64,000 bases of DNA from an uncultured Actinomycetes bacterium. Its GTDB lineage: Bacteria; Actinomycetota; UBA4738; HRBIN12. Location of the stretch: the NCBI GenBank assembly GCA_963816425.1, contig CAWFKP010000006.1, positions 272,278 to 336,277 of the forward strand, given 5' to 3'. A program made the translations under genes and the position numbers. Every line of letters begins with the position of its first letter. Position 1 is the stretch's first letter. This document shows, in pieces, positions 756 through 38,554 of this stretch. The notes beneath the pieces are model-generated. The model did no database searches and was not told the origin of the DNA. It worked only from the letters and a program-made list of their open reading frames with translations.

Positions 756-2435
756 ATGGCAGGTCAGCCGAACCGTCCCCGCAGCTGGGAAGTCACCGAC
801 GGGCCGCAGCGCGCACCGGCGCGCGCGTATCTGCGTGCGGTCGGCTTCTCCGAGGAAGATTTCGGGAAGCCACAGGTGGCCGTTGCCTCCAGCTGGAACG
901 AGGTCACCCCGTGCAACTACCACCTGGACAAGCTCGCCGCGCTGGCGAAGGAAGGGGTCCGACAGGGCGACGCCGTCCCGATCGAGTTCACGACGATCGC
1001 CGTGTCCGACGGCATCGCCATGGGGCACGAGGGCATGAAGGCCTCGTTGATGAGCCGGGACCTGATCGCGGACTCGGTGGAGCTCGTGATGCACGCCGAG
1101 CGGCTGGACGCGCTCGTCGGCATCGCGGGCTGCGACAAGTCCGAGCCCGGCATGCTGATGGCGATGGCGCGGCTGGACCTGCCGTCGGTCTATCTGTATG
1201 GGGGCACGATCCTTCCCGGCACCTACCAAGGGCGCGACGTCACGATCCAGGATGTGTTCGAGGCGGTCGGCGGCCACGCGAAAGGCACGGTGAGCGACGA
1301 GGAGCTGCTCGGGCTCGAGCGCGCGGCGTGTCCGACGACCGGCTCCTGCGCCGGCATGTATACCGCCAACACGATGGCCTGCGTCGGCGAGGCGCTCGGC
1401 ATGTCGCTGCCGGGCTCGGCCAGCCCGCCCGCGGTCGACTATCGGCGGGAGGTCGCCGCCCGGGAGAGCGGCATCGCCGTCACGAAGGTCCTCGAGCTGG
1501 ACCTGCGTCCCCGCCAGATCCTCACGAAGGAGGCCTTCGAGAACGCGATCACCGTCGTGATGGCGGTGGCGGGCTCCACGAACGCGGTGCTGCACCTGCT
1601 GGCGATCGCCCGTGAGGCCCACGTCGAGCTGACGCTGGATGACTTCGACCGGATCTCCCGCCGCACGCCGCACCTCGTCGACGTGCGCCCCGCGGGCCGG
1701 TTCGTGATGAGCGACCTCGATCGCGTGGGCGGTGTGCCGGTCGTGATGCAGGAGCTGCTCGGTCTCGGGCTGCTCCACGGCGACTGCATGACCGTGACGG
1801 GCACCACCCAGGCCGAGAACCTGTCAACGTCGCCGCCTCCCGCTCCCGACGGATCGATCGTGCATGCGGCGGACGACCCGATCCATCCGTGGGGCGGCAT
1901 CGCGATCCTGCGCGGCAACCTCGCGCCTGACGGCGCCGTGATCAAGGCGGCCGGCATGGAGGGCTCGATCTTCGAGGGCAGCGCGCGCGTGTTCGACTCC
2001 GAGCAGGCGGCGTTCGACGCGCTCACGGCCGGGGGGATCGCGGCGGGCGACGTCGTCGTGATCCGCTACGAGGGGCCGAAGGGCTCGCCGGGCATGCCCG
2101 AGATGCTGGCGGTCACGGCTGCGGTCGCGGGCGCGGGTCTCGGCAAGGACGTCGCATTGATCACCGACGGCAGGTTCAGCGGTGCCACCAAGGGCATCAG
2201 CGTCGGGCACATCGCGCCCGAGGCGTTCGTCGGCGGCCCGATCGCGCTCATCGCGGAGGGGGACCGGATCCGGATCGACACCGACGGTCGGACGCTCGAG
2301 GTGCTCGTCGAGGACGCCGAGCTCGATCGTCGCCGCACGTCGTGGGTCGAGCCGGCACCGAAGTACACGCAAGGCGCGCTGGCGAAGTACGCGCGCACGG
2401 TCGGCTCCGCCGACACGGGGGCGACCACGTGGTGA
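756..2435 (+). CDS. ilvD: dihydroxy-acid dehydratase
   Basis: Track ORF 171..2435; first plausible start ATG 756 preceded by GGAGG at ~741-745; translation [31 protein letters not shown]...[30 protein letters not shown] is typical IlvD/EDD family. Confidence 0.92.
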
Positions 2436-3673
2436 CGCCCGCGAACGTCGTCGCACCGGCCGCCCTCGAATGCCGCATCTGTCATGCGCGCTACCCCGTC
2501 GAGCCCCTGACGATCTGCGAGGAGTGCTTCGGCCCGCTCGAGCCCGCATACGATCTCGCGGCGATCAACGGTGCCGCGTTCCGCGACGAGGTGGAGGCGG
2601 GGCCCGCGTCGATGTGGCGCTACCAGCCGTTGCTGCCGGGCGGTCCCGACCTGGAGCGGATCGACCTCGGCGCCGGGTTCACGCCGCTGCGGCAAGCCGA
2701 CAACCTCGCCGCGCGGCTCGGCTTGGAGCGCCTGTGGATCAAGGACGACTCCGTCAATCCATCGAACTCCTTCAAGGACCGGGTGGTGAGCGTCGCGATC
2801 ACGATGGCGCGCGCGTTCGGGTTCGAGGCGATCAGCTGCGCCTCGACCGGCAACCTCGCCAACGCCACCGCGGCGCACGCAGCCAAGGCCGGCATGCCCT
2901 GTTACGTGTTCGTGCCCGACGACCTCGAGCGCGCCAAGATCCTCGCGACCGAGGTCTACGGCGCCAAGGTCGTCACCGTGAAGGGGAACTACGACGCGGT
3001 GAACCGGCTGTGCTCGGAGGTCGCCGAGGCGCTGCCCTGGGCCTTCGTCAACGTGAACATGCGGCCCTTCTACGCAGAGGGGTCGAAGTCGCTCGGGTTC
3101 GAGACCGCCGAACAGCTCGGCTGGCGCCTTCCGGATCACGTGGTGGTGCCGATCGCGAGCGGTGCGCTGCTGACGAAGGTGCACCGTGCGTTCCAGGAGC
3201 TGACCGCGATCGGCGCGGTCCAAGACAAGCGCTATCGCGTGTCCGGCGCCCAGCCGGAGGGATGCCGGCCAGTGGCGCAGGCGTTCCAGGACGGCGACGA
3301 GGTCGTGGCGCCGATGAAGCCCGACACGATCGCCCGATCGTTGGCGATCGGCTCGCCCGCCGATGGCATGTTCGCGATGCAGGTGGCACGCGAGACCGGC
3401 GGCCACATCGAGTGGTGCACCGAGGGCGAGATCCGCGAGGGCATCGCCCTCCTCGCCGAGACCGAGGGTGTCTTCACCGAGACCGCCGGCGGCGTCACGA
3501 TCGCCAACCTCAAGCGGATGTGCGACCAGGGCATCATCAAGCCCGACGAAGAGACCGTCGCCTATGTGACGGGCAACGGCTACAAGACGATCGAAGCGCT
3601 CGAGGGTTTCGTGGAGCCGACCTATCACGTCGCGCCGGACCTCGACGAGTTCCTCGCCGCGCTGAACGCCTGA
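2429..3673 (+). CDS. thrC: threonine synthase (PLP-dependent) with N-terminal Cys4 zinc-ribbon
   Basis: Track ORF 2342..3673; GTG GTG at 2429-2434 overlaps ilvD stop (GTGGTGA). N-terminus [25 protein letters not shown]-lysine motif NPSNSFKDR and ThrC-like body. Confidence 0.75.
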
Positions 3674-3718
3674 GTCGTCCTGCGGCGGCGGATCGCCGTC
3701 GGGTAGCGTCCCTGCTGC

Positions 3719-5374
3719 ATGAATCGCTTGCTCTCCCATCTCGGGCCTCCGATGCGGGCGCTCCGTGGTGTCTTCCGCAACCGTGCGATCCGCCGGATGC
3801 AGCTGGCCTTCCTGTTGTTCAACGTCGCCGAGCCGGCGATGTGGGTGGCGATCCTCGTCTACGCCTTCGACGAGGGCGGCACACGGGCGGTCGGCTTCGT
3901 CTCGATCCTGTGCCTGGTGCCCGCCGGCCTGCTGGCCCCGCTCGCGGCCGGGCTCGGCGACCGGTTCCCGCGCGAGCGCGTGGTGCGCTTCGGGTACCTG
4001 ACGCAGGCGGTCGTCACCGGCATCCTCGCGTTGGCGCTCGTCGCCGGCGCCCCGCCGATCGCCGTGTACCTGATCGCGATGGTGTCGTGCATCCCCTACA
4101 CGGCCGGCCGGCCGAACCATCACGCGCTGCTGCCCTCGCTGAGCAACGCACCCGACGAGGTCGCCGCGGCCAACTCCGTCTCGGCCCTCACGGAGGGGAT
4201 CGGCTACGCACTAGGGGCTCTGACGGCCGCGATCCTCGCCCCGATCGGCGCCGGGGCGATCGTGGCCGTTGCGGCCGCCGCCCTCGGTTTGGCATTCCTC
4301 CTGACGCTCGGCATTCACGCCCCGCCGGACAACGTCGACCGGGGCTCCTTCCGCGCGTGGACGCTGGCGGTCGACGCGGTGGACGGCATCCGGCGGATCG
4401 CGACGACCCCGGGAACGAGGATCCTCGTGCTGATCGCGGGCGGACTGGCGATCGCGACCGGGGCGATCGGCGTGCTGCTGGTGCCGCTCGCGATCGACCG
4501 GCTCGGGCTCGGCGATTCCGGCGTGGGGTTCCTCACGACGATCCAGAGCGTCGGGCTGTTCGTCGGTGCCGGTGTCTCGGTAGCGTTCGCAACGCGGCGG
4601 CGATTGGCTGGCGGCATCCTGGCGGCGGCGGCCCTGTACACCGTCGGCGGCGTGCTGTTCGGCCTCGCGACGACGACCGTGATCGCGGTGATCGCCGCCG
4701 TGGCCTATGGGGCGTCCATCACGCTGCTCGACGTGCTCGCGCGGACGCTGCTCCAGCGCACGACGAGCGACGACCTCCTGACGAGGGTATTCGGGGCCGT
4801 GGAGGCGCTGTGGCTGCTCGCCTACGCGGTGGGGGCGGCGATCGCGCCGCCGCTCGAGTCGCGGATCGGGCTGCCGATCTCCTTCGCCCTGCTCGGATGC
4901 ACGATGACGGTCGCGGGCCTCGCCTCCTTCGCCGGTCTCCGGCGGGTGGATGCGGCCGCGGTGGTGCCGGTGCGCCAGCTCGAGCTGCTGTCGGGCATCC
5001 CGATGTTCGCGCCGTTGCCGCACCTCGACCTGGAGCGCATCGGGCGCCAGCTCGACCTGCTGGCGATGCCCACCGGCACCGAGGTGATCCGGCAAGGGGA
5101 TGTCGGCGACCGGTTCTACATCGTCGATGCGGGCAGTTTCGAGATCGTGCGCGACGGCGTGCGGATCGACACGGCCGAGTCGGGCGGGTACTTCGGCGAG
5201 ATCGCCCTGTTGCACGACGTGCCGCGGACCGCGACCGTGCGCGCCATCGCGGACGGCGCGGTGTGGGCGCTGGATCAGGAGGAGTTCCTGGCCACCGTCA
5301 CCGGTCTGCCGCAGGCGGCCAAGGCCGCGCACGATGTCTCCGCCGAACGTCGGCGGATGCACACCCCGGACTAG
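3719..5374 (+). CDS. MFS-type transporter fused to a C-terminal cyclic-nucleotide-binding (CAP effector) domain
   Basis: About 12 predicted TM helices followed by a C-terminal domain with FGEIALL and RTATVRA signatures of cNMP-binding domains. Confidence 0.75.
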   Translation: MNRLLSHLGPPMRALRGVFRNRAIRRMQLAFLLFNVAEPAMWVAILVYAFDEGGTRAVGFVSILCLVPAGLLAPLAAGLGDRFPRERVVRFGYLTQAVVTGILALALVAGAPPIAVYLIAMVSCIPYTAGRPNHHALLPSLSNAPDEVAAANSVSALTEGIGYALGALTAAILAPIGAGAIVAVAAAALGLAFLLTLGIHAPPDNVDRGSFRAWTLAVDAVDGIRRIATTPGTRILVLIAGGLAIATGAIGVLLVPLAIDRLGLGDSGVGFLTTIQSVGLFVGAGVSVAFATRRRLAGGILAAAALYTVGGVLFGLATTTVIAVIAAVAYGASITLLDVLARTLLQRTTSDDLLTRVFGAVEALWLLAYAVGAAIAPPLESRIGLPISFALLGCTMTVAGLASFAGLRRVDAAAVVPVRQLELLSGIPMFAPLPHLDLERIGRQLDLLAMPTGTEVIRQGDVGDRFYIVDAGSFEIVRDGVRIDTAESGGYFGEIALLHDVPRTATVRAIADGAVWALDQEEFLATVTGLPQAAKAAHDVSAERRRMHTPD

Positions 5375-6186
5375 CGCTCGCGGATCGCGAACGCGTCGCC
5401 GTCCCGGGCGACCGAGCCGGCGATCGGGAGGTGCGAGGCCGCGAGCAGGAGCTCCTCGTCGACCGCTCGAGCCAACAGAACGCGCCGGGTCGCCTCGCTG
5501 CCCGAGGGGTCCATATCGGCGGCGCTGACCCACTCGGGGTGCGGAGCGTTCAGCGGCGAGACGATCGCATCGCCCGCCCACAACAGCGAGTCGCCGATCA
5601 CCACGGCGAGGTGACCCGGCGTGTGTCCTGGAGCCGCGATCGCGCGCACGCGAGGAACGATGTCGATGTCCTCGGCGATCACGTCGAGGAGGTCGGCAGC
5701 GAGCAGGGCGTGCAGCGCCAGGAGCGCGGGCTGGCCGGCCTCGTCGGGAAGCTCGCCCGCCGCATCGGATGCCCAGTAGTCGGCCTCACGCCGGTGGATC
5801 ACGTGTCGCGCGTCGGGGAACGCGGGCTCCCGCCTGGGTCCGAGCAGGCCACCGACGTGATCGGCGTGTCCGTGCGTGATCACGACGATCCGGATATCCC
5901 ACGGGCGAACACCGAGCGTTGCGAGTTCCTCGTGCAGGTGCCCTGCGTCGAGATCCCCGGCGAAGCCGCCGACCCCCGCGTCGACGAGGATCATCCCCGC
6001 GGGCGCTTCGATCAGCAGGCCGGCGAAGCGGCCGTACAGCTTGCCCTCGTCATCCAGGTGCGGGCGCACGAAGGGACCCTGGATGTCGTCGTCGTAGCCG
6101 CGGAACACGAACCTCGGCGAGACGGCTCGGCCACCATCGACCAGCACACGGCAGGCGATCCCGCCCGCGTCGAACACCTCGGACAT
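5371..6186 (-). CDS. MBL-fold metallo-hydrolase
   Basis: Translation contains ITHGHADHVGG (HxHxDH metallo-beta-lactamase motif); 4-bp overlap with upstream gene end. Confidence 0.8.
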   Translation of the reverse strand: MSEVFDAGGIACRVLVDGGRAVSPRFVFRGYDDDIQGPFVRPHLDDEGKLYGRFAGLLIEAPAGMILVDAGVGGFAGDLDAGHLHEELATLGVRPWDIRIVVITHGHADHVGGLLGPRREPAFPDARHVIHRREADYWASDAAGELPDEAGQPALLALHALLAADLLDVIAEDIDIVPRVRAIAAPGHTPGHLAVVIGDSLLWAGDAIVSPLNAPHPEWVSAADMDPSGSEATRRVLLARAVDEELLLAASHLPIAGSVARDGDAFAIRER

Positions 6187-6249
6187 GCGGCTCAGTATGC
6201 AGAAGGGGCGGCCGGATGGCCGCCCCTTCGATGCCGAGACCGGGCCTCC

Positions 6250-6714
6250 TTACGGCAGCAGCATGAAGACGAAGTTGTACCCACCCGGGCGGGCGATGAG
6301 TTTCATCGAACCGCGCGCGTTCCGGAACTCCATCGTCCCGCCGGTGATCGCCAGCGTGTTGTCGCGACCGTCGAAGAAGGCGCCCTCGACCATGATCGCG
6401 CCACGGCCGGCGATGAAGGTCAGCCAGCGGCACTCCCACGTGCCCTGTTTCGGCGAGATCCGGATGCAGTCGCCCTGATCGTGCCCGACCTTGTGCGAGT
6501 TGGTTGCATCGAAGATCGGGTTGTTGAACGTGAGCAGGTCACCCGACGTGTCTCCAGACTTGCCGGTGTCGATCACCTTGTCGGTGAGCGCGTGCTCGAT
6601 GACGTGCAACGTCGTCGGCTGCGTGACCGCGCGGTTACCCGCGAACGAGACAGTCAGCGCGGTCCCGATCACGACCAGCACCATCGCCCCGATGAACAGC
6701 GGTTTCTTCTTCAT
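6250..6714 (-). CDS. secreted hypothetical protein (N-terminal signal peptide)
   Basis: Internal ATG of track ORF 6250..6888; MKKKPLFIGAMVLVVIGTALTVSFAG signal-like N-terminus; no recognisable family. Confidence 0.5.
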   Translation of the reverse strand: MKKKPLFIGAMVLVVIGTALTVSFAGNRAVTQPTTLHVIEHALTDKVIDTGKSGDTSGDLLTFNNPIFDATNSHKVGHDQGDCIRISPKQGTWECRWLTFIAGRGAIMVEGAFFDGRDNTLAITGGTMEFRNARGSMKLIARPGGYNFVFMLLP

Positions 6715-6893
6715 CGTCGTTCCCTCCCCGAGGGCCCTGTCGGCCCGTCCGCGCGAGGGTATACCGGTCGGCGGATCCGTGCTGACGGGTCCTGCCGAAC
6801 GGCCCGCGGGCGCCGGGACCTTCCCACCTTCCGAGCGGTCATCTGCGTGCCAGGCTGCAGCGTGATAGAACCCATCCGAAGGGAGCAACGCGG

Positions 6894-7109
6894 ATGACCT
6901 GGGGCAATGCGGTCGTTCGAGCGATCGCGATGTTCGCCGTCTGCGTGGTGCTGTTCGCCGTCGTCCCCGGGTACCTGCTGACGTACCTCACCATCCGGAC
7001 GAGCGCGACGGTGCGCGACCTGCTGGTCATGGGCTGGTGGACCGTCGGGTTGCTCTTCGCCCTGTGGCTCTTCGTTCGGCTGCAACGCACGCGGGAGCGG
7101 GCCGGGTGA
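6894..7109 (+). CDS. small integral membrane protein (2 predicted TM helices), translationally coupled to the GltD-like gene
   Basis: 71-aa ORF, hydrophobic (AIAMFAVCVVLFAVVPGYLLTYL / WWTVGLLFALWLFV); its stop TGA 7107-7109 overlaps the GTG 7106-7108 of the next gene. Confidence 0.4.
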   Translation: MTWGNAVVRAIAMFAVCVVLFAVVPGYLLTYLTIRTSATVRDLLVMGWWTVGLLFALWLFVRLQRTRERAG

Positions 7110-8968
7110 GCGCCTTCCGCCCGCACACCGTGGATGGCGATTGGTTCGACGCGAACGTGCCGTGCACGCGCGCCTGTCCGGTCTTGACGAACGCGGGCCG
7201 CTACGTCGCCGCGATCGCCGCCGGCGACGACGAGCTCGCCTACGACATCGCGCGACTGCCCAACCCGTTCCCTTCGATCTGTGGTCGCGTGTGCGCGGCC
7301 CCCTGCGAGCTGGCCTGCCGCCGCGGCACGATCGATCAGCCGATCGCGATCCGGGCGCTCAAGCGCTTCGTCTGCGAGAGCTTCGGTGTCGAAAGTGCCG
7401 CGGGTACCGACGCGTATCGGCGAGCCGTCATGCAGCTCCCGACGCGAGACGAGCGCATCGCGATCGTCGGCGCAGGGCCCGCGGGGCTCGCCGCCGCGCA
7501 CGATCTCGCCGGCTACGGGTACCGATCCGTCGTCTTCGAGGCACAGCGCGAGGCCGGCGGCATGATGGTGCTTGGGATCCCGCCGTACCGACTCCGTCGC
7601 GACCTCCTCGACCTGGAGATCGCGGCGATCCTCGAGATGGGAGTCGAGCTGCGCACGGGGCAGCGCCTCGGCCTGGACTTCACCATCTCGTCTCTGCGCG
7701 ACGAGGGCTTCGCTGCGATCTTCGTCGCCGTCGGCGCAACGCGCAGCAGGGATCTGCAGATCCCCGGCGTCGAGCTCGACGGCGTGCTCAAGGCGGTGGA
7801 CTTCTTGTTGAACGTGAACCTCGGGTACGAGGTCAACCTCGGCGAGGACGTCTTGATCGTTGGCGGGGGCAACGTTGCCCTGGACGCTGCGCGCTCCTCA
7901 CTGCGCGCGGGCCGCACGGCAGGCTCGGAGGGCTCCTTCGACGTCGAGGGCGTGGGGGCTGCGGAGGCGATGGGGTCCGTCGCGACGGCGACGCTCGACG
8001 TCGCACGGACGGCGATGCGACAGGGCGCCCGTCGCGTCCGCTGTGTGATGCTCGAGAGCCGTGCCGAGATGCCTGCGAGCGAGTTCGAGATCGAGGAGGC
8101 CGAGATCGAGGGCATCGAGTTCCTCCATCGTCGCGGCCCAGAGGCGATCGTCGGGACCGACCATGTCGAGGGACTGCAGACGCTCGACGTGGCGTCTGTC
8201 TTCGACGAGAACGGCCGGTTCGCGCCCGATCTGATCGCGGGCACTGAGCGCACGCTGGACTGCGACTCGGTGATCCTCGCAGTGGGACAGACCTCCGACC
8301 TCTCGTGGATCGACGACGCCGACGGGATCGAGACGTCGCCGCGCGGCACGGTGGTGGTCGATCGCGAGACGTTGGGGACGACGGCGGCCGGTGTGTACGC
8401 GGGCGGCGACCTGGCGTTCGGCCCACGGAACCTGATCGACGCGATCGCCGACGGTCGACGTGCGGCCGCCTCGATCTATCGCCTCCTCAGCGGCGAGGAA
8501 GCGCCGCGGCCGCGTCTCGAGGGCCGGCGCATGCTGCCGATCGTCGAGGTGAACCGGGGTCCGCGCGCCGACGAGTACACCGAGCGCGCCCGCGTGCCGG
8601 TTCCCTCGGAGCCGACCGGCCGACGCATCGGCTCCCCCGAGGTTGAGCTGGGGTTCACCGAGGAGGAGGCGCGGCTCGAGGCCGGCAGGTGCCTGCAGTG
8701 TTTCCTCAACATCATGTTGGACCCGGAGCGCTGCATCCTGTGTCGCGGCTGCGCCGACGTGTGCCCCGAGCGCTGCATCACGATCCTGCCGGCCGAGGAG
8801 ATCGAGGGCCTCAAGCCCGAGACGCCGTCGGCGGTGCTCGTGCTGCAGGAGGAGCGGTGCATCCGGTGCGCGCTGTGCGTCGAGCGGTGTCCGACGAACG
8901 CGCTGACGCTCGAGGGCTGGTCGGAGGCCTCGACCGCCCCCATCGCGCTGGAGGTGCTGCCGGGATGA
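7106..8968 (+). CDS. GltD-like NAD(P)H/FAD oxidoreductase fused to a C-terminal 2x[4Fe-4S] ferredoxin domain
   Basis: N-terminal Cys cluster (CTRACP...[14 protein letters not shown]) as in glutamate-synthase small-subunit family. Two Rossmann motifs ([14 protein letters not shown]; [13 protein letters not shown]). C-terminal CLQC...[15 protein letters not shown] and [12 protein letters not shown] ferredoxin motifs. Confidence 0.8.
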
Positions 8969-8981
8969 GCGGGGGATCGCG

Positions 8982-9797
8982 ATGAGCTCGAAGGACCGCT
9001 CGGTGCGCGACAGCGCGTGGTATCGGGCGATCGTGCACCCGGGCAAGGTCTACGGTGGCGAGATCTACCGGTCTGCGATCCGGCACCCACCCCCCACGAC
9101 GCCGCGCGGGCGGGCGATGACCTCGTTCCAGAACTTCTTCCTCCACATCTACCCGGTGAAGGTGCCCCGCGAGGTGATCAAGGGTCGGACAACACTGCGG
9201 CTCGGGTTCATCGCGGCGGTCCTGTACGGCATCCTGTTCGTCTCGGGGACCTACCTGATGTTCTTCTACCGCCCGACCGTTCCCGACGCGTACTTCAGCA
9301 TGCACGACCTGTCGACGACGGTGGCGTTCGGCAGCTTCGTCCGCAACGTTCACCGATGGTCGGCACACCTGATGGTGATCGTGGTGCTCGCGCACCTGAT
9401 CCGGGTCTTCTACGCCGGGGCGTATCGGCGGCCGCGCCAGTTCAACTGGGTGATCGGGGTCGTGCTGCTGGTGCTGACGCTGCTGATGTCGTTCACCGGC
9501 TATCTGCTTCCGTGGGATCAGCTCGCGTTCTGGGCGATCACGGTCGGCACCAACATCGCCGGGTACGTGCCGGTGATCGGTACCCAGGTTCGCAACTTGC
9601 TGCTCGGCGGTCCCGAGGTCTCGAGCGCCGCGCTGCTGCGCTTCTACGTCTTGCACATCTACTTCTTGCCCGCCCTGATCACCGTGCTCGTCGCGGTGCA
9701 CATCTGGCGGGTTCGGAAGGACGGATTCGCCGTCAGCGACCGCACGAAGGTGTCGGCCGCCCAGTCCGGACAGGAGCACGCCGATGCCCACGAATGA
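8982..9797 (+). CDS. qcrB: cytochrome b6-type subunit (N-terminal half of split cytochrome b)
   Basis: Track ORF; 13-nt gap after previous gene with GGGGGA RBS. Conserved cytochrome b helices A-D ([36 protein letters not shown]); ends after helix D. Confidence 0.85.
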
Positions 9798-10293
9798 ACC
9801 TGAGCCTCGCTACCGACTCCTCGGGGTCGTCGAGAAGGAGGTCGAGCAGAAGGACCGGCTGGACCCGCACGACGAGGTCTTCACGTGGCCGCACCTGCTC
9901 GTGCGCCATGTGGTCGTCGCGGCCGGCACGATCGCGGTCGTCTTTCTGCTCGCCATCCTGTTCGACGCCCCGTTGAAGGAGATCGCGAATCCGAACGCCA
10001 CGCCAGAGGTGGCGAAGGCCCCGTGGTACTTCGCCGGCCTGCAGGAGCTGCTGTCCCATTTCGCGCCGATGGTGGCGGGCATCCTGATCCCGGGAGCAGC
10101 CCTCGTGTGGCTGTTCGCACTGCCGTACATCGACCGTGCGTCGGACTACCGCGCGCGCAGCCGGAAGTTCGTCGTCACGGTGTTCACGATCGTCGCCGTG
10201 CTCGCGCTCCTGCTCACCATCGTCGGCACCTTCTTCCGAGGACCCGGCTGGAGCTGGGTCCCGCCGTGGCAGCACTCGTACGCGGAGTTCTGA
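9784..10293 (+). CDS. cytochrome bc complex subunit IV (C-terminal half of split cytochrome b, PetD-like)
   Basis: Overlaps cyt b6 gene by 14 nt; [12 protein letters not shown] matches the PEWY region of subunit IV; 3 TM helices. Confidence 0.8.
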
Positions 10294-10294
10294 G

Positions 10295-10909
10295 ATGGAC
10301 GAGCACACCGACGAACACGACGCAGCGGGCGACGCACCGGTCGACCGCCGACGGTTCCTGAACGGTACGTGGAAGGCGCTCGGCGTGGTGTTGATCGCCG
10401 AGGGCGCGTGGACGAGCTACGACATCCTGCGCCCCGACACGAGTCAGGGGGCGGGCTCGGTGATCGATGCCGGACCCGTGAGCGACTACGCAGAGGAAGG
10501 CACGGTCAAGTACTTCCTCAGCGGACGTTTCTACGTCACGCAGTTCCAGGGCGGGCTGCGTGCGCTGTATCAGAAGTGCCCGCACCTCGGGTGCCGCGTG
10601 CCCTTCTGCGACAGCTCCGGCCGGTTCGAATGCCCGTGCCACGGCAGCTACTACAACGTGATCGGGGAGTACATCCAGGGACCCGCGCCGCGCGGGATGG
10701 ATCGGTTCAAGATCTCGATCAGTGACGACGGACGGGTGCTGGTCGACACCGCGACCGTCCTGCCCGGGCCCGCGAAGGGCGTTCTGACCGGGCCCGCCGA
10801 CGCAGCGGGTCCGTCGTGCACGTCGGCGGAGGGAGAGGCCGTGGCGACGCCGAGCGCCACGCCGAACGCCCCCGATGCCAGCGCCTCGCCCTCCGGTGGT
10901 ACGCCGTGA
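10295..10909 (+). CDS. qcrA: Rieske [2Fe-2S] protein with twin-arginine signal
   Basis: ATG 10295 two nt after previous stop. RRRFLNG Tat motif. CPHLGC...CPCHGS Rieske boxes. Confidence 0.85.
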
Positions 10910-11364
10910 GCAAGGCCCCAGCGGACGACCCCGTCCTCGCTCGCTCGACCCGAAGGTGGCAGCGGGTCGGTGTCTGGCTGCTCCTGATCCTCGTGCTGTC
11001 CTTCCCGCTCTACAAGCTGACGGAGGGGTCACGGCGAGCCTCCGCCGCGCTGCTGCAGCAGCAGGCGCAGATCGCGACGGGGACGCAATTGTGGGCCGCG
11101 AACTGCGCCGTCTGCCACGGCCCGATGGGGGAGGGCGTCAGCGCTCCCGCGTTGAACTCCCAAGAGTTCCTCACGACGGTCACCGACGCGCAGATACGCG
11201 ACATCATGCGCGGCGGCATCCCGGGCACCGAGATGCCCGCCTGGCTCAACGACTACGGCGGACCGCTGACCGAGGAGCAGATCCAGGCACTCGTTGTGTA
11301 CATCCGCTCGTGGGAGGCGACGGCGCCGGCGCGCCCGGACTGGCGCACGCCGAGCGGCGGATAG
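10906..11364 (+). CDS. membrane-anchored monoheme c-type cytochrome
   Basis: GTG 10906 overlaps Rieske stop (GTGA). One TM helix ([14 protein letters not shown]) then CAVCHG heme-binding motif. Confidence 0.75.
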
Positions 11365-11373
11365 GAGATCGAG

Positions 11374-13437
11374 ATGGCACGCGGATCATTGCTGCGCACG
11401 CGAGCTCGCGGCTTCGTGATGCTCGCGGCCGTCCTCGCCCTGGGGAGCTGCTCCGTGCAGTCGCAGGGGATCGGCGAGACGGTCGCGATGATCCCGGGAT
11501 ACGCGGGCGGCGGAGCAGCTCCGAGCGGGCCGCCGATCCAGGGCTACGACGCGCCGATCCCCGTCATCCAGGTCGGGCTTTCCGAGACCGACGCCACCCA
11601 CATGGCGATCGACCTGTCCCAGCCCTTTGCCCCCCAGGGCAAGGTGTCGTTCCTCGTGACCAACAACGGGGCCAAGAAGCACGAGTTCGTGGTGCTTGCC
11701 ACCGACACCGCGGCGGCTTCCTTCCCGATCGTGAGCTTCGAAGGTGAGGCCAACCGGATCGATGAGGACGCCAAGGGTGTGACCAACGTCGGGGAGACAG
11801 GCGACATGGAACCGGGTGCGGTGATGATGCTGACCTTGGACCTGGCCCCGGGCCACTACGCCGTGGTCTGCAACCTCCCCGGGCACTACGCGATGGGCAT
11901 GCACCAGGACTTCTTCGTCACGCCCACCGCCTCCACGCCGGTCAGCGTCGGGCTGTCCGAGACCGACGCCACCCACATGGCGATCGACCTGTCCCAGCCC
12001 TTTGCCCCCCAGGGCAAGGTGTCGTTCCTCGTGACCAACAACGGGGCCAAGAAGCACGAGTTCGTGGTGCTTGCCACCGACACCGCGGCGGCTTCCTTCC
12101 CGATCGTGAGCTTCGAAGGTGAGGCCAACCGGATCGATGAGGACGCCAAGGGTGTGACCAACGTCGGGGAGACAGGCGACATGGAACCGGGTGCGGTGAT
12201 GATGCTGACCTTGGACCTGGCCCCGGGCCACTACGCCGTGGTCTGCAACCTCCCCGGGCACTACGCGATGGGCATGCACCAGGACTTCTTCGTCACGCCC
12301 ACCGCCTCCACGCCGGTCAGCGTCGGGCTGTCCGAGACCGACGCCACCCACATGGCGATCGACCTGTCCCAGCCCTTTGCCCCCCAGGGCAAGGTGTCGT
12401 TCCTCGTGACCAACAACGGGGCCAAGAAGCACGAGTTCGTGGTGCTTGCCACCGACACCGCGGCGGCTTCCTTCCCGATCGTGAGCTTCGAAGGTGAGGC
12501 CAACCGGATCGATGAGGACGCCAAGGGTGTGACCAACGTCGGGGAGACAGGCGACATGGAACCGGGTGCGGTGATGATGCTGACCTTGGACCTGGCCCCG
12601 GGCCACTACGCCGTGGTCTGCAACCTCCCCGGGCACTACGCGATGGGCATGCACCAGGACTTCTTCGTCACGCCCACCGCCTCCACGCCGGTCAGCGTCG
12701 GGCTGTCCGAGACCGACGCCACCCACATGGCGATCGACCTGTCCCAGCCCTTTGCCCCCCAGGGCAAGGTGTCGTTCCTCGTGACCAACAACGGGGCCAA
12801 GAAGCACGAGTTCGTGGTGCTTGCCACCGACACCGCGGCGGCTTCCTTCCCGATCGTGAGCTTCGAAGGTGAGGCCAACCGGATCGATGAGGACGCCAAG
12901 GGTGTGACCAACGTCGGGGAGACAGGCGACATGGAACCGGGTGCGGTGATGATGCTGACCTTGGACCTGGCCCCGGGCCACTACGCCGTGGTCTGCAACC
13001 TCCCCGGGCACTACGCGATGGGCATGCACCAGGACTTCTTCGTCACGCCCACCGCCTCCACGCCGGTCAGCGTCGGGCTGTCCGAGACCGACGCCACCCA
13101 CATGGCGATCGACCTGTCCCAGCCCTTTGCCCCCCAGGGCAAGGTGTCGTTCCTCGTGACCAACAACGGGGCCAAGAAGCACGAGTTCGTGGTGCTTGCC
13201 ACCGACACCGCGGCGGCTTCCTTCCCGATCGTGAGCTTCGAAGGTGAGGCCAACCGGATCGATGAGGACGCCAAGGGTGTGACCAACGTCGGGGAGACAG
13301 GCGACATGGAACCGGGTGCGGTGATGATGCTGACCTTGGACCTGGCCCCGGGCCACTACGCCGTGGTCTGCAACCTCCCCGGGCACTACGCGATGGGCAT
13401 GCACCAGGACTTCTTCGTCACGCCCCAGGCGGCATAG
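11374..13437 (+). CDS. lipoprotein with five tandem cupredoxin (type-1 copper) domains
   Basis: LALGSCS lipobox. Five 125-aa repeats each with H(EF)...C-N-L-P-G-H-x-x-M-G-M ligand pattern of blue-copper sites (KHEFVV...VVCNLPGHYAMGMH). Confidence 0.8.
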   Translation: MARGSLLRTRARGFVMLAAVLALGSCSVQSQGIGETVAMIPGYAGGGAAPSGPPIQGYDAPIPVIQVGLSETDATHMAIDLSQPFAPQGKVSFLVTNNGAKKHEFVVLATDTAAASFPIVSFEGEANRIDEDAKGVTNVGETGDMEPGAVMMLTLDLAPGHYAVVCNLPGHYAMGMHQDFFVTPTASTPVSVGLSETDATHMAIDLSQPFAPQGKVSFLVTNNGAKKHEFVVLATDTAAASFPIVSFEGEANRIDEDAKGVTNVGETGDMEPGAVMMLTLDLAPGHYAVVCNLPGHYAMGMHQDFFVTPTASTPVSVGLSETDATHMAIDLSQPFAPQGKVSFLVTNNGAKKHEFVVLATDTAAASFPIVSFEGEANRIDEDAKGVTNVGETGDMEPGAVMMLTLDLAPGHYAVVCNLPGHYAMGMHQDFFVTPTASTPVSVGLSETDATHMAIDLSQPFAPQGKVSFLVTNNGAKKHEFVVLATDTAAASFPIVSFEGEANRIDEDAKGVTNVGETGDMEPGAVMMLTLDLAPGHYAVVCNLPGHYAMGMHQDFFVTPTASTPVSVGLSETDATHMAIDLSQPFAPQGKVSFLVTNNGAKKHEFVVLATDTAAASFPIVSFEGEANRIDEDAKGVTNVGETGDMEPGAVMMLTLDLAPGHYAVVCNLPGHYAMGMHQDFFVTPQAA
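11563..13437 (+). repeat. 5 x 375-bp direct tandem repeat; copies 2-5 read as identical at nucleotide level
   Basis: Identical sequence blocks starting 11938, 12313, 12688, 13063. Identical antisense ORFs in track at 375-bp period (11886, 12261, 12636, 13011). Copy 1 differs only at its 5' end, copy 5 at its last ~12 nt. Confidence 0.9.
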
Positions 13438-13462: not shown

Positions 13463-13491
13463 TTGACACCCGGCCGCGGCGCCCGCACACT
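13463..13491 (+). promoter_or_regulatory. putative promoter (TTGACA-N17-CACACT) positioned for a leaderless transcript starting at the leader-peptide ATG
   Basis: TTGACA at ~13463-13468 and a weak -10 about 17 nt downstream; leader ATG 13501 has no SD, consistent with leaderless initiation. Confidence 0.3.
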
Positions 13492-13500
13492 GTTGTGGCT

Positions 13501-13551
13501 ATGACGAACGCAGCTGTGCTCGGACGCAGCGTCCTCGTACTTATCGCCTAG
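13501..13551 (+). CDS. ilv operon leader peptide MTNAAVLGRSVLVLIA (attenuation control)
   Basis: 16-codon ORF rich in Val/Leu/Ile codons (gtc ctc gta ctt atc) ending TAG 13549-13551 immediately before the antiterminator stem. Confidence 0.55.
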   Translation: MTNAAVLGRSVLVLIA

Positions 13552-13587
13552 GCGCGGGGGGCCCACGGGCCCGCAGACCCCCGCGCC
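13551..13587 (+). promoter_or_regulatory. antiterminator hairpin of ilv attenuator (GGCGCGGGGG / CCCCCGCGCC, 10-bp perfect stem)
   Basis: 13551-13560 pairs perfectly with 13578-13587. Shares CCCCCGC with the terminator stem, so the two structures are mutually exclusive. Confidence 0.5.
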
Positions 13588-13617
13588 AGATGCCCTCCGC
13601 CCAGCGGGGGGCTTTTT
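13578..13617 (+). terminator. intrinsic terminator of ilv attenuator (CCCCCGC...GCGGGGG followed by GCTTTTT)
   Basis: Stem 13578-13584 / 13604-13610, U-tract 13613-13617. Located between leader peptide and first structural gene. Confidence 0.55.
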
Positions 13618-13681
13618 GTATCCCGTAGCGTGCCACCGGGCCTCGACCAGCCGGGGACCCAGACAGAGAGGAGAACCACCG

Positions 13682-25794: not shown

Positions 25795-26897
25795 TCAGGC
25801 GAGGTCGGCCACGAAGGAGCGCATGAACGCGGCGAGTTGCTCCACGCCCGCCATCGGCATGGCGTTGTAGATGGAGGCGCGGATCCCGCCGACGCTGCGA
25901 TGGCCCTTGAGCTCGACCATGCCGGCCGCGGCCGCCTCCGCCACGAACCGGCTCTCGAGCTCCTCGGTCGGCAGGCGGAACGTGACGTTCATCAAGGAAC
26001 GCGCCTCGCGTCGCGCGTGGCCTCGATAGACGTCGGGGAACTCGTCGATGACGTCGTAGAGCAGCGCCGCCTTCGCGCGGTTGCGCTGCAACATCGCGTC
26101 GAGCCCGCCGACCTCGTCGCGCAGCCACCTCGTGACCAGCATCAGCACGTAGATCGAGAACACCGGGGGCGTGTTGTACAGCGACCCATGCTCGGCGTAG
26201 GTGCGGTAGTCGAGCATCGTCGGCAGGCCATCCGGCACGGCCGTGAGCACGTCGTCGCGCACGATCGCCACCGTCACCCCTGCCGGGCCCGCGTTCTTCT
26301 GCGCTCCGGCGTACAGCACCGCGTACCGGTCGACGTCGACCGGACGCGACAGGAAGTCGCTCGAGCAGTCCGCAACGAGCCGCACGTGATCCGGCATGGT
26401 CGGCGTGTCCGCGTACTCGACGCCCTGGATCGTCTCGTTCGTCGTGACGTGCACGTAGGCCGGATCGGCCTCGATCGATGCCCGCAGCTCGTCGGTGTCG
26501 GGCACCCGGACGTATCCCTCGTCCTCGCCCGACCAGGCGAGGCGGGCGAGCCCCACGCGGGCCGCCTCGGCGATCGCCTTCGCGCCCCACGAGCCGGTCA
26601 CGACGTAGTCGCGGGCGGCCCCGAGCTCCGAAGCAGATTCATCGCGACCATCGCGAACTGCATCGTGGCGCCGCCCTGCAGGAACAGGACGCGATGACTC
26701 GTCGGGATCGCAAGCAGCGATCGCAGGTTCGCCTCGGCCTCCTCGATCACCCCCGTGAACCAGGCGCCGCGGTGCGAGACCTCCAGCGGCGAGGCGCCGA
26801 CCCCCGGCAGCGCGACCAGGTCGCCCTGCGCCTGCTGGAGCACGGAGAGCGGCAGGACGCCCGGCCCTGCCGCGAAGTTCACGAGACGCTCGGTCAC
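25795..26897 (-). CDS. serC: phosphoserine aminotransferase, frameshifted at a G-run ~26610-26620
   Basis: Track ORFs 26598..26897 (MTERLVNFAAGPGVLPLSVLQQA..EVSHRGAWF) and 25795..26601 (..TGSWGAKAIAEA..) are the two halves of SerC. Confidence 0.8.
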
Positions 26898-32211: not shown

Positions 32212-35200
32212 ATGAGGAGCCGTACGGGTTCCACGCCAGACGGAACCACCGACCCCGACCGATCGAGGCGCCCGAACGTGTCTGACCCGGCTGTGCAGCC
32301 CCAAGCTCCCGCTGCCATCCATCCCGTGCACGCGGCGCTGGCCGAGCGGATCGAGACGACCGTCCCGCCCGAGCGCCGAGACGCGCTGCTCGCCTTTGCT
32401 CGGATGATGCTCCGGCGTCTGAGCGCCGAGGACCTCACCACGCGCGGGGTCGACCAGCTGCTCGGCATCGTCCGATCCGCCTTCGCGTTCGTCGATGCGC
32501 GCGGCAACCACCCGGCGATCGTGCGGGTGTTCGTGCCGACGATCGACCGCGACGGCTACCTGGTTCCGGGCACGATCATCGAGACGAACACCGACGACTC
32601 GCCGTTCCTGGTGGACTCGGTCACCGAGGAGCTCGCGGCGCGCAACCTGGGCGTGCGGCTGATCGTGCACCCGATGATCGGGACGGCTCGCGCCGAGGAC
32701 GGCCACCTGGAGCGGGTCATGTCCGGCCGCGACGCGGCCCACCGAGAGTCGTTCATGCACTTCGAGCTGGAGCGACGGCTCGCCGAGCAGGATCGCGTGG
32801 ACCTCGAGGGCAGGATCCGGGCGATCCTGCACGACGTGCGCCTCGTGGTCCGCGACTTCGAGCCGATGCAGGCGCGGGTCCGCCACATGGGGGAGATCGC
32901 ACGGCAGGCGACGGTGATCTACAGCCCGCAAGAGGTCGGCGAGACGGTCGACTTCGTGGAGTGGCTGCTACAGCTGAACTTCGTCTTGCTCGGCTACCGC
33001 GAGTACCGGATGGCCGACGGACCCGAGGGACGCACGATCCAGGCGGTGCCGGGCTCGGGGCTCGGCATCCTCGCCGACGTGTCCGCCAGCTCGTTCTCCG
33101 ACGCGACGCCGCTCAACTCGCTCGACCCCGACGTCCGCCGGCGGATCGAGGAAGGCGAGCTCCTCGTCATCACCAAGACGAAGGCCTACAGCACGGTGCA
33201 CCGGCGCGCGCGCATGGACTACGTGGGCGTGCGGATCATCTCCCCCGAGGGTCAGGTGGTCGGGGAGGCCCGGCTGATCGGGCTGTTCACATCGAAGGCC
33301 TACATGGAGCCGGCGGCCAAGACGCCGCTGCTGCACCACAAGCTCGAACAGATCATCGCCGCGGAGGACCTCATCCCCGGTTCGCACGACTACAAGCAGG
33401 TCATCGAGCTGTTCGAGTCGTTCCCGCGTGACGAGCTGTTCCAGGCGACCACGGAAGAGCTCCGACAGCTGGTCGTCGGTCTGCTGCAGCTCGAGAAGCA
33501 CGGCGGCATCCGGGTGCTGTTGCGCAAGGATCTCTACGGCCGGCAGGTGTCGATCGTCGTCGCGTTGCCGCGCGAGAAGTTCAGCGCCTCGCTCCGCAAG
33601 CGCCTTCAGGAGATGTTCCGTGAGCGGTTCGGCGGGACCTCGATCGATTACCACCTGTCCCTGGGCGAGACCGAATCGGCCCGCATCTTCTTCACGGTGC
33701 ACGTCGAGACGGGTGTCCAGATCCCGGAGATCCCATACGAGGAGTTGGAGGAGGAGGTCGAGCGACTCGCGCGCACGTGGGACGACGACCTGCTCGACCA
33801 CCTGACCGAGATCCTCGGGCCCGAGCGCGGACCGTTGCTTGCCGCGCGCTACGGCCCGCGGTTCCCGGACTACTACAAGACCACCGAGACGGACTGGACC
33901 CAGGTGGCGATGGACGTCGCCAGCCTCGAACAGCTCTCCAGCGACAGCGATGGCTTCGTGATCGGCATCGGGAATGAGGACGTCGGTGAACGACTGACCC
34001 GGGTGAAGCTCTACAAGACCGGCGGCAAGGTCGACCTCTCCGCCTTCATGCCGCTGCTCGAGTCGCTCGGCCTGCGCGCCGTCGAGGAGATCCCGATCGC
34101 GCTGCACGGCGAAGGCCGAACCTACATCCACGACTTCGGCGTCCTCGATGCCCGCGGCGCGGTGCTCAATCTCGAGGCCGAGGCCGATCTTGTGCGCGAT
34201 GCGCTCACCGCCATGTGGCGCGGCGACGCCGAGGTCGACTCGCTCAACCGGCTCGTGATCTTCGCGGACCTGTCCTGGCCGCAGGTTCACATCCTGCGCG
34301 CCTATCGCAAGTATCGGATGCGGGTCTCGACGCGGTTCACCGAGGAGTACCGCAACGACGCGCTCGCCGAGAATCCGCACATCGCACGCCGGCTCGCCCA
34401 GCTGTTCGAGACGAAGTTCGATCCGATCCGGGACGCACCCGCCACCGACGCCGACGAGCTCCGCCAGCAGATCAAAGAGGATCTCCGGGCGGTGGCGTCG
34501 CTGGACCAGGATCAGATCATCCGATCGCTCCTAGGCACGATCGAGGCGACGGTGCGCACGAACGCCTACCTGCCCGACCGACCCGCGCTCGCATTGAAGT
34601 TGCGATCGGCAGACGTTCCCGAGATGCCGAAGCCGTTCCCGCTGTTCGAGATCTTCCTGTACTCCTCGCAGATGGAGGCGATCCATCTGCGGGGCGGCAT
34701 GATCGCGCGCGGCGGCATCCGCTGGTCGGACCGCAAGGAGGACTACCGCACCGAGGTGCTGGGCCTGATGAAGGCCCAACGCGTGAAGAACGCGGTGATC
34801 GTGCCCGACGGCTCGAAGGGCGGATTCATCCTGAAACGCTCGACCAGCTCCCCGGCGGAGCTGAAGCAGGAGGTCGTGACCCAGTACGTCACCTTCATGC
34901 ACGGGTTACTCGACATCACCGACAACCTCGTGCGCGGTGAGGTGACCCATCCCGCGGGCGTGCGCGTGCTCGACGGCGACGATCCCTACCTCGTGGTCGC
35001 CGCCGACAAGGGTACGGCGACCTTCTCCGACACCGCCAACGCCGTGAGCGAGGAATTCGGCTTCTGGCTGGGCGACGCGTTCGCCTCGGGCGGCAGCGCC
35101 GGCTACGACCACAAGGCGCTGGGGATCACGGCGCGCGGCGCCTGGGAGTCGGTGAAGCGGCACTTCCGCGAGCTCGGTGTCGACGTGTTGCGCGACTCGT

Positions 35201-38522: not shown

Positions 38523-38554
38523 CCCGCGACTACACCACATCGCGACGAAACGGG

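Follow-up and report, generated by a model that had tools for sequence, protein, structure and literature searches.

Why does an operon for a Rieske/cytochrome b complex in an uncultured Actinomycetes bacterium of soil also encode a GltD-like flavoprotein and a string of five copper domains, and in which direction would electrons run through its product? The operon was read from a 64,000-nucleotide stretch (the window) of contig CAWFKP010000006.1 (assembly GCA_963816425.1), where the GC content is 65–73%. The closest public relative of the window, with 99% identity, is a contig (L001) of an uncultured Actinomycetes metagenome-assembled genome (MAG) from the Microflora Danica set. The comparisons described below make it very probable that the encoded system is an actinobacterial variant of the Rieske/cytochrome b complexes that bear an NAD(P) oxidoreductase and belong to the APWY clade. 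A preliminary description of this DNA had recognized a b6-type Rieske/cytochrome b operon with a GltD-like subunit related to anammox complexes, and this proposal is borne out by subunit-by-subunit homology to an anammox-type contig, by matches to the solved structures 9rk3 and 9rk4, and by synteny across approximately 60 species.

The seven open reading frames (ORFs) of the operon lie on the plus strand between positions 6894 and 13437. Each gives a sensible protein, and the reading frames are backed by an analysis of GC content at third codon positions (GC3). These genes, and a DNA repeat within the last of them, are as follows.

6894 to 7109, plus strand: micro-protein of 71 residues with two hydrophobic helices (approximately residues 6–24 and 43–61)
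7106 to 8968, plus strand: flavoprotein of 620 residues, a GltD/NfnB-like FAD/NAD(P)H module with a C-terminal 2x[4Fe-4S] domain
8982 to 9797, plus strand: cytochrome b6 of 271 residues with four transmembrane helices (Pfam Cytochrome_B, 156 bits)
9784 to 10293, plus strand: subunit IV of 169 residues with three transmembrane helices (Pfam Cytochrom_B_C, 44 bits)
10295 to 10909, plus strand: Rieske [2Fe-2S] protein of 204 residues (Pfam Rieske, 37 bits) with the twin-arginine motif DRRRF at residues 17–21
10906 to 11364, plus strand: class-I monoheme cytochrome c of 152 residues (Pfam Cytochrome_CBB3 / Cytochrom_C)
11374 to 13437, plus strand: copper lipoprotein of 687 residues with a lipobox-like LGSC sequence (Cys26) and five type-1 copper domains of 125 residues
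11572 to 13425, plus strand: tandem repeat of 375 bp, present 4.9 times with 99% matches at the DNA level and free of indels, which encodes the copper domains

Stop and start codons overlap as GTGA between the micro-protein and flavoprotein genes (7106–7109) and between the Rieske and cytochrome c genes (10906–10909), and the genes for cytochrome b6 and subunit IV share 14 nucleotides (9784–9797). The other junctions are gaps of 13 nucleotides between the flavoprotein and b6 genes (8968/8982), one nucleotide between the subunit IV and Rieske genes (10293/10295), and nine nucleotides between the genes for cytochrome c and the copper protein (11364/11374). Purine runs resembling Shine-Dalgarno sequences precede the starts at 6894, 8982, 9784, 10295 and 11374. 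All of these coordinates and junctions agree with those given in the preliminary description, and the seven genes constitute a translationally coupled operon.

Profile hidden Markov models from Pfam support every domain call made earlier at scores above the curated cut-offs, including the FAD/NAD(P) and [4Fe-4S] assignments. For the flavoprotein, the matches are to Fer4_20 (residues 17–92, 64.5 bits), Pyr_redox_2 (residues 117–450, 100 bits) and Fer4_7/Fer4 (residues 542–601). Its FAD motif GAGPAG (residues 122–127) and its NAD(P)H motif (residues 253–263) are invariant across relatives, and neither a signal peptide nor a transmembrane helix was found. The C-terminal domain carries two CxxCxxCxxxCP motifs (Cys543/546/549/553 and Cys585/588/591/595) and resembles a FwdF-type polyferredoxin in a structure-database match. 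The closest solved structures to the flavoprotein are Bfu-type NfnABC (9bov/9bp5, E = 2.6e-86), followed by NfnI, NfnB and GltD (to 3.5e-55), and the same structural relatives are reported for the Kuenenia protein Kuste4570 (PMC12954380).

The likeness to NfnB, NfnABC and GltD lies in the common arrangement of Fer4_20 domain, FAD fold and NADPH fold, but the window protein also departs from these enzymes. It has the dicluster ferredoxin domain as an addition at the C terminus, and the cysteines of its N-terminal iron-sulfur domain follow a 2+4 pattern (Cys20 and Cys24, then Cys59, Cys63, Cys67 and Cys71, plus Glu68) instead of the 4+3 pattern of NfnB and GltD, with the first and fourth cysteines of motif 1 replaced by alanine and Cys59 present as an extra cysteine ahead of the second motif. 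Its scores against the NCBIfam models gltA and gltD are far below the cut-offs, and no gene for an NfnA or GltB partner is present in the operon or its conserved neighbourhood. The 2+4 pattern is common to the Rieske/cytochrome b-linked flavoproteins of Actinomycetota, of an anammox-type contig, and of Armatimonadetes, Verrucomicrobiota and Neomarinimicrobiota, and among copies whose genomic context is known it was seen only in flavoproteins with this linkage. Of the 150 closest cluster representatives at 50% identity, 91 have it and none has the classical Nfn/GltD pattern. Flavoproteins with the 2+4 pattern form a distinct and large subfamily.

Two subgroups of these linked proteins can be recognized from an insertion at the NAD(P) site. 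In the window protein the motif LDxARxxxRxG occurs twice (7880–8030, residues 259–310), with the two occurrences spaced by an insert of variable length (approximately 28–39 residues). Homologues from Verrucomicrobiota and Neomarinimicrobiota share the insertion, which is missing from the anammox-type and Armatimonadetes proteins. An AlphaFold2 model of the flavoprotein monomer, computed from an 18-sequence alignment, was too poor to use (mean pLDDT 56, pTM 0.62) and was set aside.

To establish how widely the arrangement is conserved, a profile built from the flavoprotein and related sequences was scanned against one genome per species (GTDB r232), which yielded 70 flavoprotein loci, all in MAGs. 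The gene order of the window (flavoprotein, b6, subunit IV, Rieske, cytochrome c) recurs in 59 of these loci, another eight are broken off at contig ends, and three combine the flavoprotein with Rieske/cytochrome b genes in a different order (L045 from Neomarinimicrobiota, and L049 and L050 from Limisphaerales/Verrucomicrobiota). The core order is kept in all 59 actinobacterial loci that are long enough to test, and wherever the sequence suffices, none of the 70 loci lacks Rieske/cytochrome b genes beside the flavoprotein gene. Because this linkage holds in every testable locus, it goes well past what chance would give, and the adjacency noted in the preliminary description is functional rather than incidental. 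In 52 of the 70 loci, a micro-protein homologue is encoded immediately upstream of the flavoprotein gene. The same description had named a multidomain cupredoxin as the probable electron acceptor, a reading that is supported here. A cupredoxin gene is present downstream of the cytochrome c gene in 51 of the 59 loci with the same order, most commonly with five copper domains. Outside the seven genes, nothing that flanks them (oxidases, hydrogenases and lithotrophy genes included) is conserved in the 42 long loci, and the operon is thus a mobile, self-contained unit.

In some MAGs the complete operon is present as two or three paralogues. These are CAVQUN01 (L014, L064 and L051), CAVOUQ01 (L013 and L030) and JALYLP01 (L003 and L024), with L014 and L064 located approximately 14 kb apart on one contig. 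Two loci from other phyla have gene sets of their own. At the Limisphaerales locus L049 (5755–13871), the flavoprotein and a Rieske protein are encoded together with a long, fused cytochrome b that lacks CxGG, one hexahaem cytochrome c and several cytochromes c of the monoheme type. In Armatimonadetes, locus L073 (5253–13798) combines a flavoprotein-Rieske-b6-subunit IV core with multihaem cytochromes and a molybdopterin oxidoreductase. These gene sets point to one core that has been joined to very different periplasmic partners.

The anammox reference for our comparisons was contig L071, found through an orthologue that is 82% identical to a segment of 9rk4, and positions in Kuenenia proteins were mapped through it. 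This contig carries the full Kuste4569–4574 architecture, comprising a Rieske protein, a flavoprotein of 585 residues, a b6 of 272 residues, a subunit IV of 240 residues with five transmembrane helices, a multihaem cytochrome c and an HAO-like octahaem protein. A Scalindua contig (L072) breaks off at the Rieske gene. The window flavoprotein aligns with its L071 counterpart over the full length (34% identity across 606 aligned residues, E = 4e-111), and the corresponding values are 48% identity for cytochrome b6 (E = 5e-75) and 38% for subunit IV (E = 6e-27). Among solved structures, the Rieske protein best matches Kuenenia Kustd1480 (9rk3, 1e-20) and Kuste4569 (9rk4, 3e-16). This pair outscores all b6f, bc1 and actinobacterial QcrA proteins, with cyanobacterial PetC at approximately 1e-14 and QcrA at approximately 1e-5. 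The best solved match of the b6 protein is cyanobacterial b6 (2.5e-44).

The window operon shares with Kuste4569–4574 and Kustd1480–1485 a four-helix b6, a subunit IV, a Rieske protein and a flavoprotein of approximately 600 residues (Kuste4570 and Kustd1483 in Kuenenia), all encoded in one operon. Also shared are the 2+4 cysteine pattern, the APWY motif, the Ser/Tyr signature of the Rieske protein, and two residues of b6 that are discussed below. The differences are nonetheless considerable. In the window the flavoprotein comes first and the Rieske gene follows that for subunit IV, unlike the anammox gene order, and subunit IV has three transmembrane helices rather than five. The anammox-type b6 keeps the cysteine for haem cN (CMGG in L071), whereas the window protein has RLGF at this position and would lack haem cN. 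A monoheme cytochrome c and a five-domain cupredoxin are encoded in place of hexahaem and octahaem cytochromes and an HAO-like protein, with multihaem proteins present in both L071 and L049. The flavoprotein of the window has the NAD(P)-domain insertion with duplicated LDxAR (approximately 39 residues) that the anammox-type protein lacks, the two-helix micro-protein is an addition to the anammox set, and the hosts are a lineage of Actinomycetota in one case and a planctomycete in the other.

The micro-protein has no match in Pfam or NCBIfam and is, from its predicted helices, probably a small membrane subunit or anchor. The lengths of subunit IV and the micro-protein add up to that of the anammox subunit IV (169 + 71 = 240), but the idea that the micro-protein is the split-off C-terminal helix pair of the longer protein was dropped, as the best comparison gave E = 0.22.

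Cytochrome b6 retains the four histidine ligands of its haems (His124/His225 for bp and His138/His240 for bn, conserved in 58–60 of 60 sequences) and an intact RKDG motif on the N side. Preceding the first of these is a conserved N-terminal extension of approximately 70 residues, in which His55 is invariant (60 of 60). At the position of the haem-cN cysteine of b6f is Arg73 (RLGF, residues 73–76), which is arginine in 58 of 60 sequences, and the CxGG motif for haem cN is not found in the window protein when it is aligned to L071 and cyanobacterial b6. In subunit IV, the Qo motif APWY (A79-P80-W81-Y82) is kept in 63–65 of 65 sequences and is also present in L071, L049 and L074. Additional histidines were noted in both proteins. 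His129 of b6 is invariant and is located five residues past the first bp ligand, in the sequence HRWSAH. The histidine is also present in the anammox-type protein (HRWGAH), and the cyanobacterial b6 in the alignment reads HRWSAS. In subunit IV, His37 and His42 are conserved, and the anammox protein has neither.

Hauser et al. (2025) predict a novel haem b at the dimer interface of cytochrome b in Kuenenia, with Kuste4571 His43 as its ligand and Arg247 flanking it (PMC12954380). His55 of the window b6 corresponds to L071 His59 and Kuste4571 His43, and Arg245 corresponds to L071 Arg263 and Kuste4571 Arg247, with both residues invariant or nearly so among the relatives. The numbering of L071 is offset by 16 from that of Kuste4571, as established from the pair Arg263/Arg247 and from an internal Met17, and the flavoprotein numbering agrees with that of Kuste4570 at Arg511. 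By analogy with the modelled anammox complexes, where His43/His62 are the residues in question, His55 is proposed as the ligand of an extra interfacial haem. The possibility that His55 tracks the presence of the flavoprotein was rejected. Operons without a flavoprotein in Anaerolineales (L074) and Tectomicrobia (L075) also encode APWY-clade cytochromes b with this histidine, which is therefore a character of the clade.

How novel is this system relative to others? The preliminary description considered a split b6/subunit IV cytochrome b unexpected in an actinobacterium. The split is real, and the NCBIfam models for the actinobacterial QcrCAB complex are not reached by the window proteins (bc1_QcrB_actin, 124.8 bits with a cut-off of 500; QcrA_actin, 28.5 with 275; QcrC_actin, 39.1 with 200). 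That complex has an unsplit QcrB, a dihaem QcrC and a QcrA with three transmembrane helices, whereas the window encodes a split cytochrome b and a monoheme cytochrome c. However, split cytochromes b with APWY are already known from Rubrobacter, Conexibacter, Patulibacter and Ilumatobacter among the deep-branching Actinobacteria (Kao & Hunte 2014, PMC4122944; Dibrova 2017, PMC5600118). Similarly, the flavoprotein link had been regarded as described essentially only for anammox complexes. Homology to the anammox proteins is evident, but the restriction to anammox does not hold. Dibrova et al. (2017) reported that short cytochromes b of subfamily G are accompanied by large NAD(P)-binding Fe-S proteins not only in Planctomycetes but 'in many other cases' (PMC5600118), and the linked flavoproteins described here extend to Verrucomicrobiota, Neomarinimicrobiota and Armatimonadetes. 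Thus, neither a split b6 in an actinobacterium nor a flavoprotein link outside anammox is wholly new. The literature searched does not describe this operon for Actinomycetota, nor its cupredoxin chain or the architecture without haem cN.

The window complex resembles members of the APWY clade (Kao & Hunte 2014) and subfamily G (Dibrova 2013, 2017), including Geobacter ExtP/ExtQ, in the split b6 and subunit IV, the APWY motif and the known co-occurrence with NAD(P)-binding Fe-S proteins. None of the APWY-clade complexes had been characterized according to Kao & Hunte (PMC4122944). Short cytochromes b of subfamily G are reported to keep CxGG (PMC5600118), and the window b6 is an exception in being short but lacking this motif. 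Among NCBIfam models, ExtP (257.9 bits with a cut-off of 290) and ExtQ (58 bits with a cut-off of 150) come nearest. Because these scores are under the cut-offs, the window proteins fall outside the ExtP and ExtQ equivalogs, and the multihaem acceptors of ExtP/ExtQ-type systems contrast with the cupredoxin of the window operon.

The b6f complex and the Bacillus bc complex share with the window a split b6 and a subunit IV with three transmembrane helices, four bis-histidine ligands, and a Tat-dependent Rieske protein with a single transmembrane helix and the sequence CPCHGS-x-Y. The acceptor of b6f is likewise a blue-copper protein (plastocyanin). Unlike b6f, the window complex has neither haem cN nor cytochrome f nor PetG/L/M/N, and its only small subunit is the unrelated two-helix protein. 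The Qo motif is PEWY or PDWY in b6f but APWY in the window, where the 70-residue N-terminal extension of b6 and a flavoprotein subunit encoded stoichiometrically are additions.

The remaining three subunits have topology signals that place them on the outside. The Rieske protein has the cluster boxes C95-P-H97-L-G-C100 and C113-P-C115-H116-G-S118-Y-Y120, in which Cys95, His97, Cys100, Cys113, Cys115 and His116 are present in 60 of 60 sequences. Ser118 and Tyr120 form the pair of hydrogen-bond donors that raises the potential in Rieske proteins of the bc1/b6f type, and they are found in 60 of 60 and in at least 80% of the sequences, respectively. The C-terminal tail is rich in proline, alanine and serine and has a conserved Cys175. 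Both Kuenenia Rieske proteins carry the serine, and Kuste4569 also has the tyrosine. Their potentials of +303 and +335 mV have been argued to suit NAD(P)+ reduction (PMC12954380). Cytochrome c has an N-terminal membrane anchor (approximately residues 21–39) and a haem-binding site at C67-A-V-C70-H71, and Met110 is the likely sixth haem ligand.

The copper protein matches Pfam SoxE/sulfocyanin in five stretches (133 bits compared to a cut-off of 21) but does not reach the NCBIfam sulfocyanin equivalog (24.8 compared to 168). All five repeats carry the ligand pattern His...Cys-x4-His-x4-Met (HEF...CNLPGHYAMGM), and the nearest solved structure is auracyanin B (3e-4), which aligns through C-x-x-P-G-H-Y-x-x-G-M. 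Auracyanin and sulfocyanin are the acceptors of alternative complex III (ACIII) and of the archaeal SoxM Rieske/cytochrome b module. They are like the window protein in their His-Cys-His-Met ligands, their lipid or membrane tether and the location of their genes beside a quinol oxidase, and unlike it in that the window protein has five tandem, near-identical domains in one polypeptide. The sequence similarity to them is weak. A multivalent carrier tethered by a lipid would suit a monoderm cell, which has no periplasm.

Copper repeats within one gene are 99–100% identical at the DNA level in the window, L001, L007, L015, L019, L038 and L040, but only 82–92% identical in L021, L037 and L056, and the copper domains of different species share approximately 60–70% protein identity. 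The near-identity of the repeats might reflect either concerted evolution or recent amplification on the one hand, or homogenization during the polishing of long reads on the other.

We can now return to the question of how electrons might move through this complex. In the account that we favour, which as a whole we judge about as likely to be right as wrong, the predicted topology places the flavoprotein in the cytoplasm and the Rieske protein, cytochrome c and copper domains outside. Actinobacteria use menaquinone, and menaquinol would be oxidized at a Qo site built by subunit IV (with APWY), b6 and the Rieske protein. One electron would enter the high-potential Rieske cluster and continue through the anchored monoheme cytochrome c and the five copper domains to a terminal oxidase or reductase whose genes lie elsewhere. 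This exergonic branch would pay for moving the other electron by way of haems bp and bn, and perhaps of an extra interfacial haem bound to His55, to the four Fe-S clusters and FAD of the flavoprotein, where NAD(P)+ would be reduced. Synthesis of NAD(P)H would thereby take the place of quinone re-reduction in a Q cycle, and reverse electron flow could proceed without the need for complex I or a transhydrogenase. The scheme follows the Kartal/Hauser proposal for anammox complexes (PMC12954380). Gene content, cofactor motifs, topology signals, conserved synteny and homology to the anammox proteins are what the sequences show. From these we infer that the flavoprotein joins the membrane subunits, which quinone is used, what accepts electrons from the cupredoxins and, most of all, which way electrons run. 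Taken by itself, NAD(P)+ reduction is a direction that we hold tentatively, at slightly less than even likelihood.

Several observations are consistent with this scheme. A high-potential branch is supported by the fact that the closest solved relatives of the flavoprotein are NADPH-binding, Fe-S-wired subunits of the NfnB type, and by the resemblance of the copper domains to auracyanin, which is the membrane-tethered acceptor of another quinol oxidase. A Ser/Tyr Rieske protein in an organism presumed to use menaquinone would parallel, by analogy, the 'unusual energetics' of Kuenenia. The predicted loss of haem cN, together with the conserved arginine in its place, is compatible with the abandonment of quinone reduction on the N side. 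The preliminary description had also proposed a ferredoxin side-branch, but the findings do not indicate one, and an internal wire is the likelier role for the 2x[4Fe-4S] domain.

Other considerations weigh against the scheme. NAD(P)+ reduction is a proposal for the whole class, with anammox complexes included (Kartal 2013, as cited in PMC12954380), and Kao & Hunte suggested that APWY complexes operate in reverse, taking electrons from the high-potential side (PMC4122944). Flow from NAD(P)H to the b haems would be thermodynamically easy, and for this organism the kind of quinone, the potential of the Rieske protein and the final acceptor are presumed. In addition, the absence of the haem-cN cysteine from b6 implies an N-side electron path unlike that of anammox complexes, the arginine of the flavoprotein near the modelled Kuenenia haem is not kept here (glycine in 49 of 63 sequences), and His55 is present in the flavoprotein-less operons noted above.

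The ease of the opposite flow is the basis of the main rival, which we consider rather less likely but compatible with the sequence. In this case the flavoprotein would be an input module, passing electrons from NAD(P)H through FAD and the Fe-S wire to haem bn (plus the His55 site) and on to menaquinone on the N side, which would make the complex a quinol:cupredoxin oxidoreductase to which a membrane-anchored NAD(P)H dehydrogenase is fused. Analogues exist in FNR bound to chloroplast b6f during cyclic flow and in the 'membrane-anchored dehydrogenase' ancestor of Dibrova et al. Four-helix dihaem cytochromes b are common anchors of cytoplasmic dehydrogenases, and co-purification of FNR with b6f is known (PMC5600118). 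Electrons would flow downhill, all of the motifs found suit this direction equally, and the RKDG motif of b6 is intact. However, most of the free energy between NAD(P)H and quinone would be wasted, as has been argued for Kuenenia (PMC12954380), and the replacement of the haem-cN site by Arg73 speaks against a quinone-reduction site of the b6f style. Input from NAD(P)H would also leave unexplained both the high-potential Ser/Tyr Rieske protein in a presumed menaquinone organism and the constant co-inheritance of the Rieske/subunit IV Qo machinery with the flavoprotein.

Full reversal in the manner of Kao & Hunte, with a periplasmic high-potential donor reducing menaquinone uphill via the cupredoxins and cytochrome c at the expense of the proton-motive force (a reversed Q cycle), and with the second electron supplied or removed by the flavoprotein, seems improbable. 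Copper proteins of the sulfocyanin and rusticyanin types do serve iron oxidizers, and the SoxE match recalls these. Against this stand the 42 long loci, in which no lithotrophic oxidase genes are conserved beside the operon, and the window itself, whose other genes are those of ordinary amino-acid metabolism. It would also make little physiological sense to spend NAD(P)H on filling the quinone pool. We regard as very improbable a flavoprotein that is not a subunit at all but a soluble enzyme, such as a stand-alone NADPH:ferredoxin-type oxidoreductase, that is merely co-transcribed. Its association with the membrane part is predicted here from gene linkage, and the AlphaFold2 monomer was too poor for an analysis of surfaces. 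However, the linkage is invariant in approximately 60 species and four further phyla despite changes in gene order, the start codon of the flavoprotein gene overlaps the stop codon of the gene for a membrane micro-protein, the 2+4 cysteine signature is confined to linked copies where the context is known, and all subunits of the Kuenenia complex co-migrate, a result of de Almeida 2016 that PMC12954380 cites.

The surroundings of the operon are ordinary by comparison. Upstream are ilvD and genes for a pyridoxal-phosphate-dependent enzyme of the PALP family, an MFS/cNMP protein and a metallo-beta-lactamase, followed by a divergent gene (6253–6714, minus strand), and downstream are ilvB, ilvN, ilvC and leuA. 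The divergent gene encodes a secreted protein of 154 residues with a hydrophobic, signal-like segment at its N terminus and weak matches (34 bits) to the allene-oxide-cyclase/dirigent-like family, which is more usual in plants. A 1571-residue ORF (2182–6897) that abuts the operon is not a gene but an arginine-rich shadow ORF of the kind that high GC content produces. The region that separates the divergent gene from the operon is the following.

6715 to 6893: divergent intergenic region of 179 bp between the minus-strand gene 6253–6714 and the operon, with AAGGGAG upstream of the ATG at 6894

The promoter of the operon presumably lies within this region, although the placement has no motif match behind it, since a scan for the sigma-70 consensus found none.

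Between the stop codon of the copper protein and ilvB (13463–13620) there is a TTGACA box and a 16-codon ORF (13501–13551) encoding MTNAAVLGRSVLVLIA, which is rich in valine, leucine and isoleucine. The ORF is followed by GC-rich hairpins and then by a stem (13592–13612) with TTTTTGT. This layout looks like a classical leader-peptide attenuator of ilvBNC. The stem is the sole strong terminator downstream of the operon and, given the attenuator layout, probably serves the regulation of ilvB. A search of the window with Rfam models gave no matches, including in this attenuator-like region.

Elsewhere in the window, a class-V aminotransferase gene (25798–26897, minus strand) is split by a frameshift into two adjacent ORFs (26601–26897 and 25798–26601), reflecting either a pseudogene or an assembly indel, and the assembly is therefore not free of pseudogenes or indel errors. 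A gene for a UbiE/MenG-type methyltransferase (37824–38540, minus strand) provides a weak hint of menaquinone synthesis, and a large-type bacterial NAD-specific glutamate dehydrogenase of 1629 residues is encoded at 32212–37098 on the plus strand.

Until now, the idea of a Rieske/cytochrome b complex that makes NAD(P)H rested almost wholly on two anammox operons, which function amid nitrite/nitric oxide and hydrazine chemistry in an exotic organelle. The flavoprotein/b6/subunit IV/Rieske core is present in approximately 60 uncultured species of Actinomycetota as well as in Verrucomicrobiota, Neomarinimicrobiota and Armatimonadetes, a distribution wider than the literature suggests. The conserved core can now be separated from lineage-specific accessories, as the high-potential partners differ and the actinobacterial form is without haem cN. 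This version is also the simpler one for heterologous expression in actinobacterial hosts. It is possible, though we would put it a little short of an even likelihood, that a large, wholly uncultured group among the Actinomycetota of soil and groundwater employs the complex to reduce NAD(P)+ with menaquinol instead of translocating protons in a Q cycle, with the pull coming from the copper chain that leads to a high-potential acceptor such as O2. If true, quinone-based bifurcation would for the first time be seen to serve NAD(P)H production outside anammox chemistry. It would provide a form of reverse electron flow that does not rely on the proton-motive force, one that would be useful where electrons enter at the level of quinone, and would represent an unrecognized source of reducing power in abundant soil bacteria.

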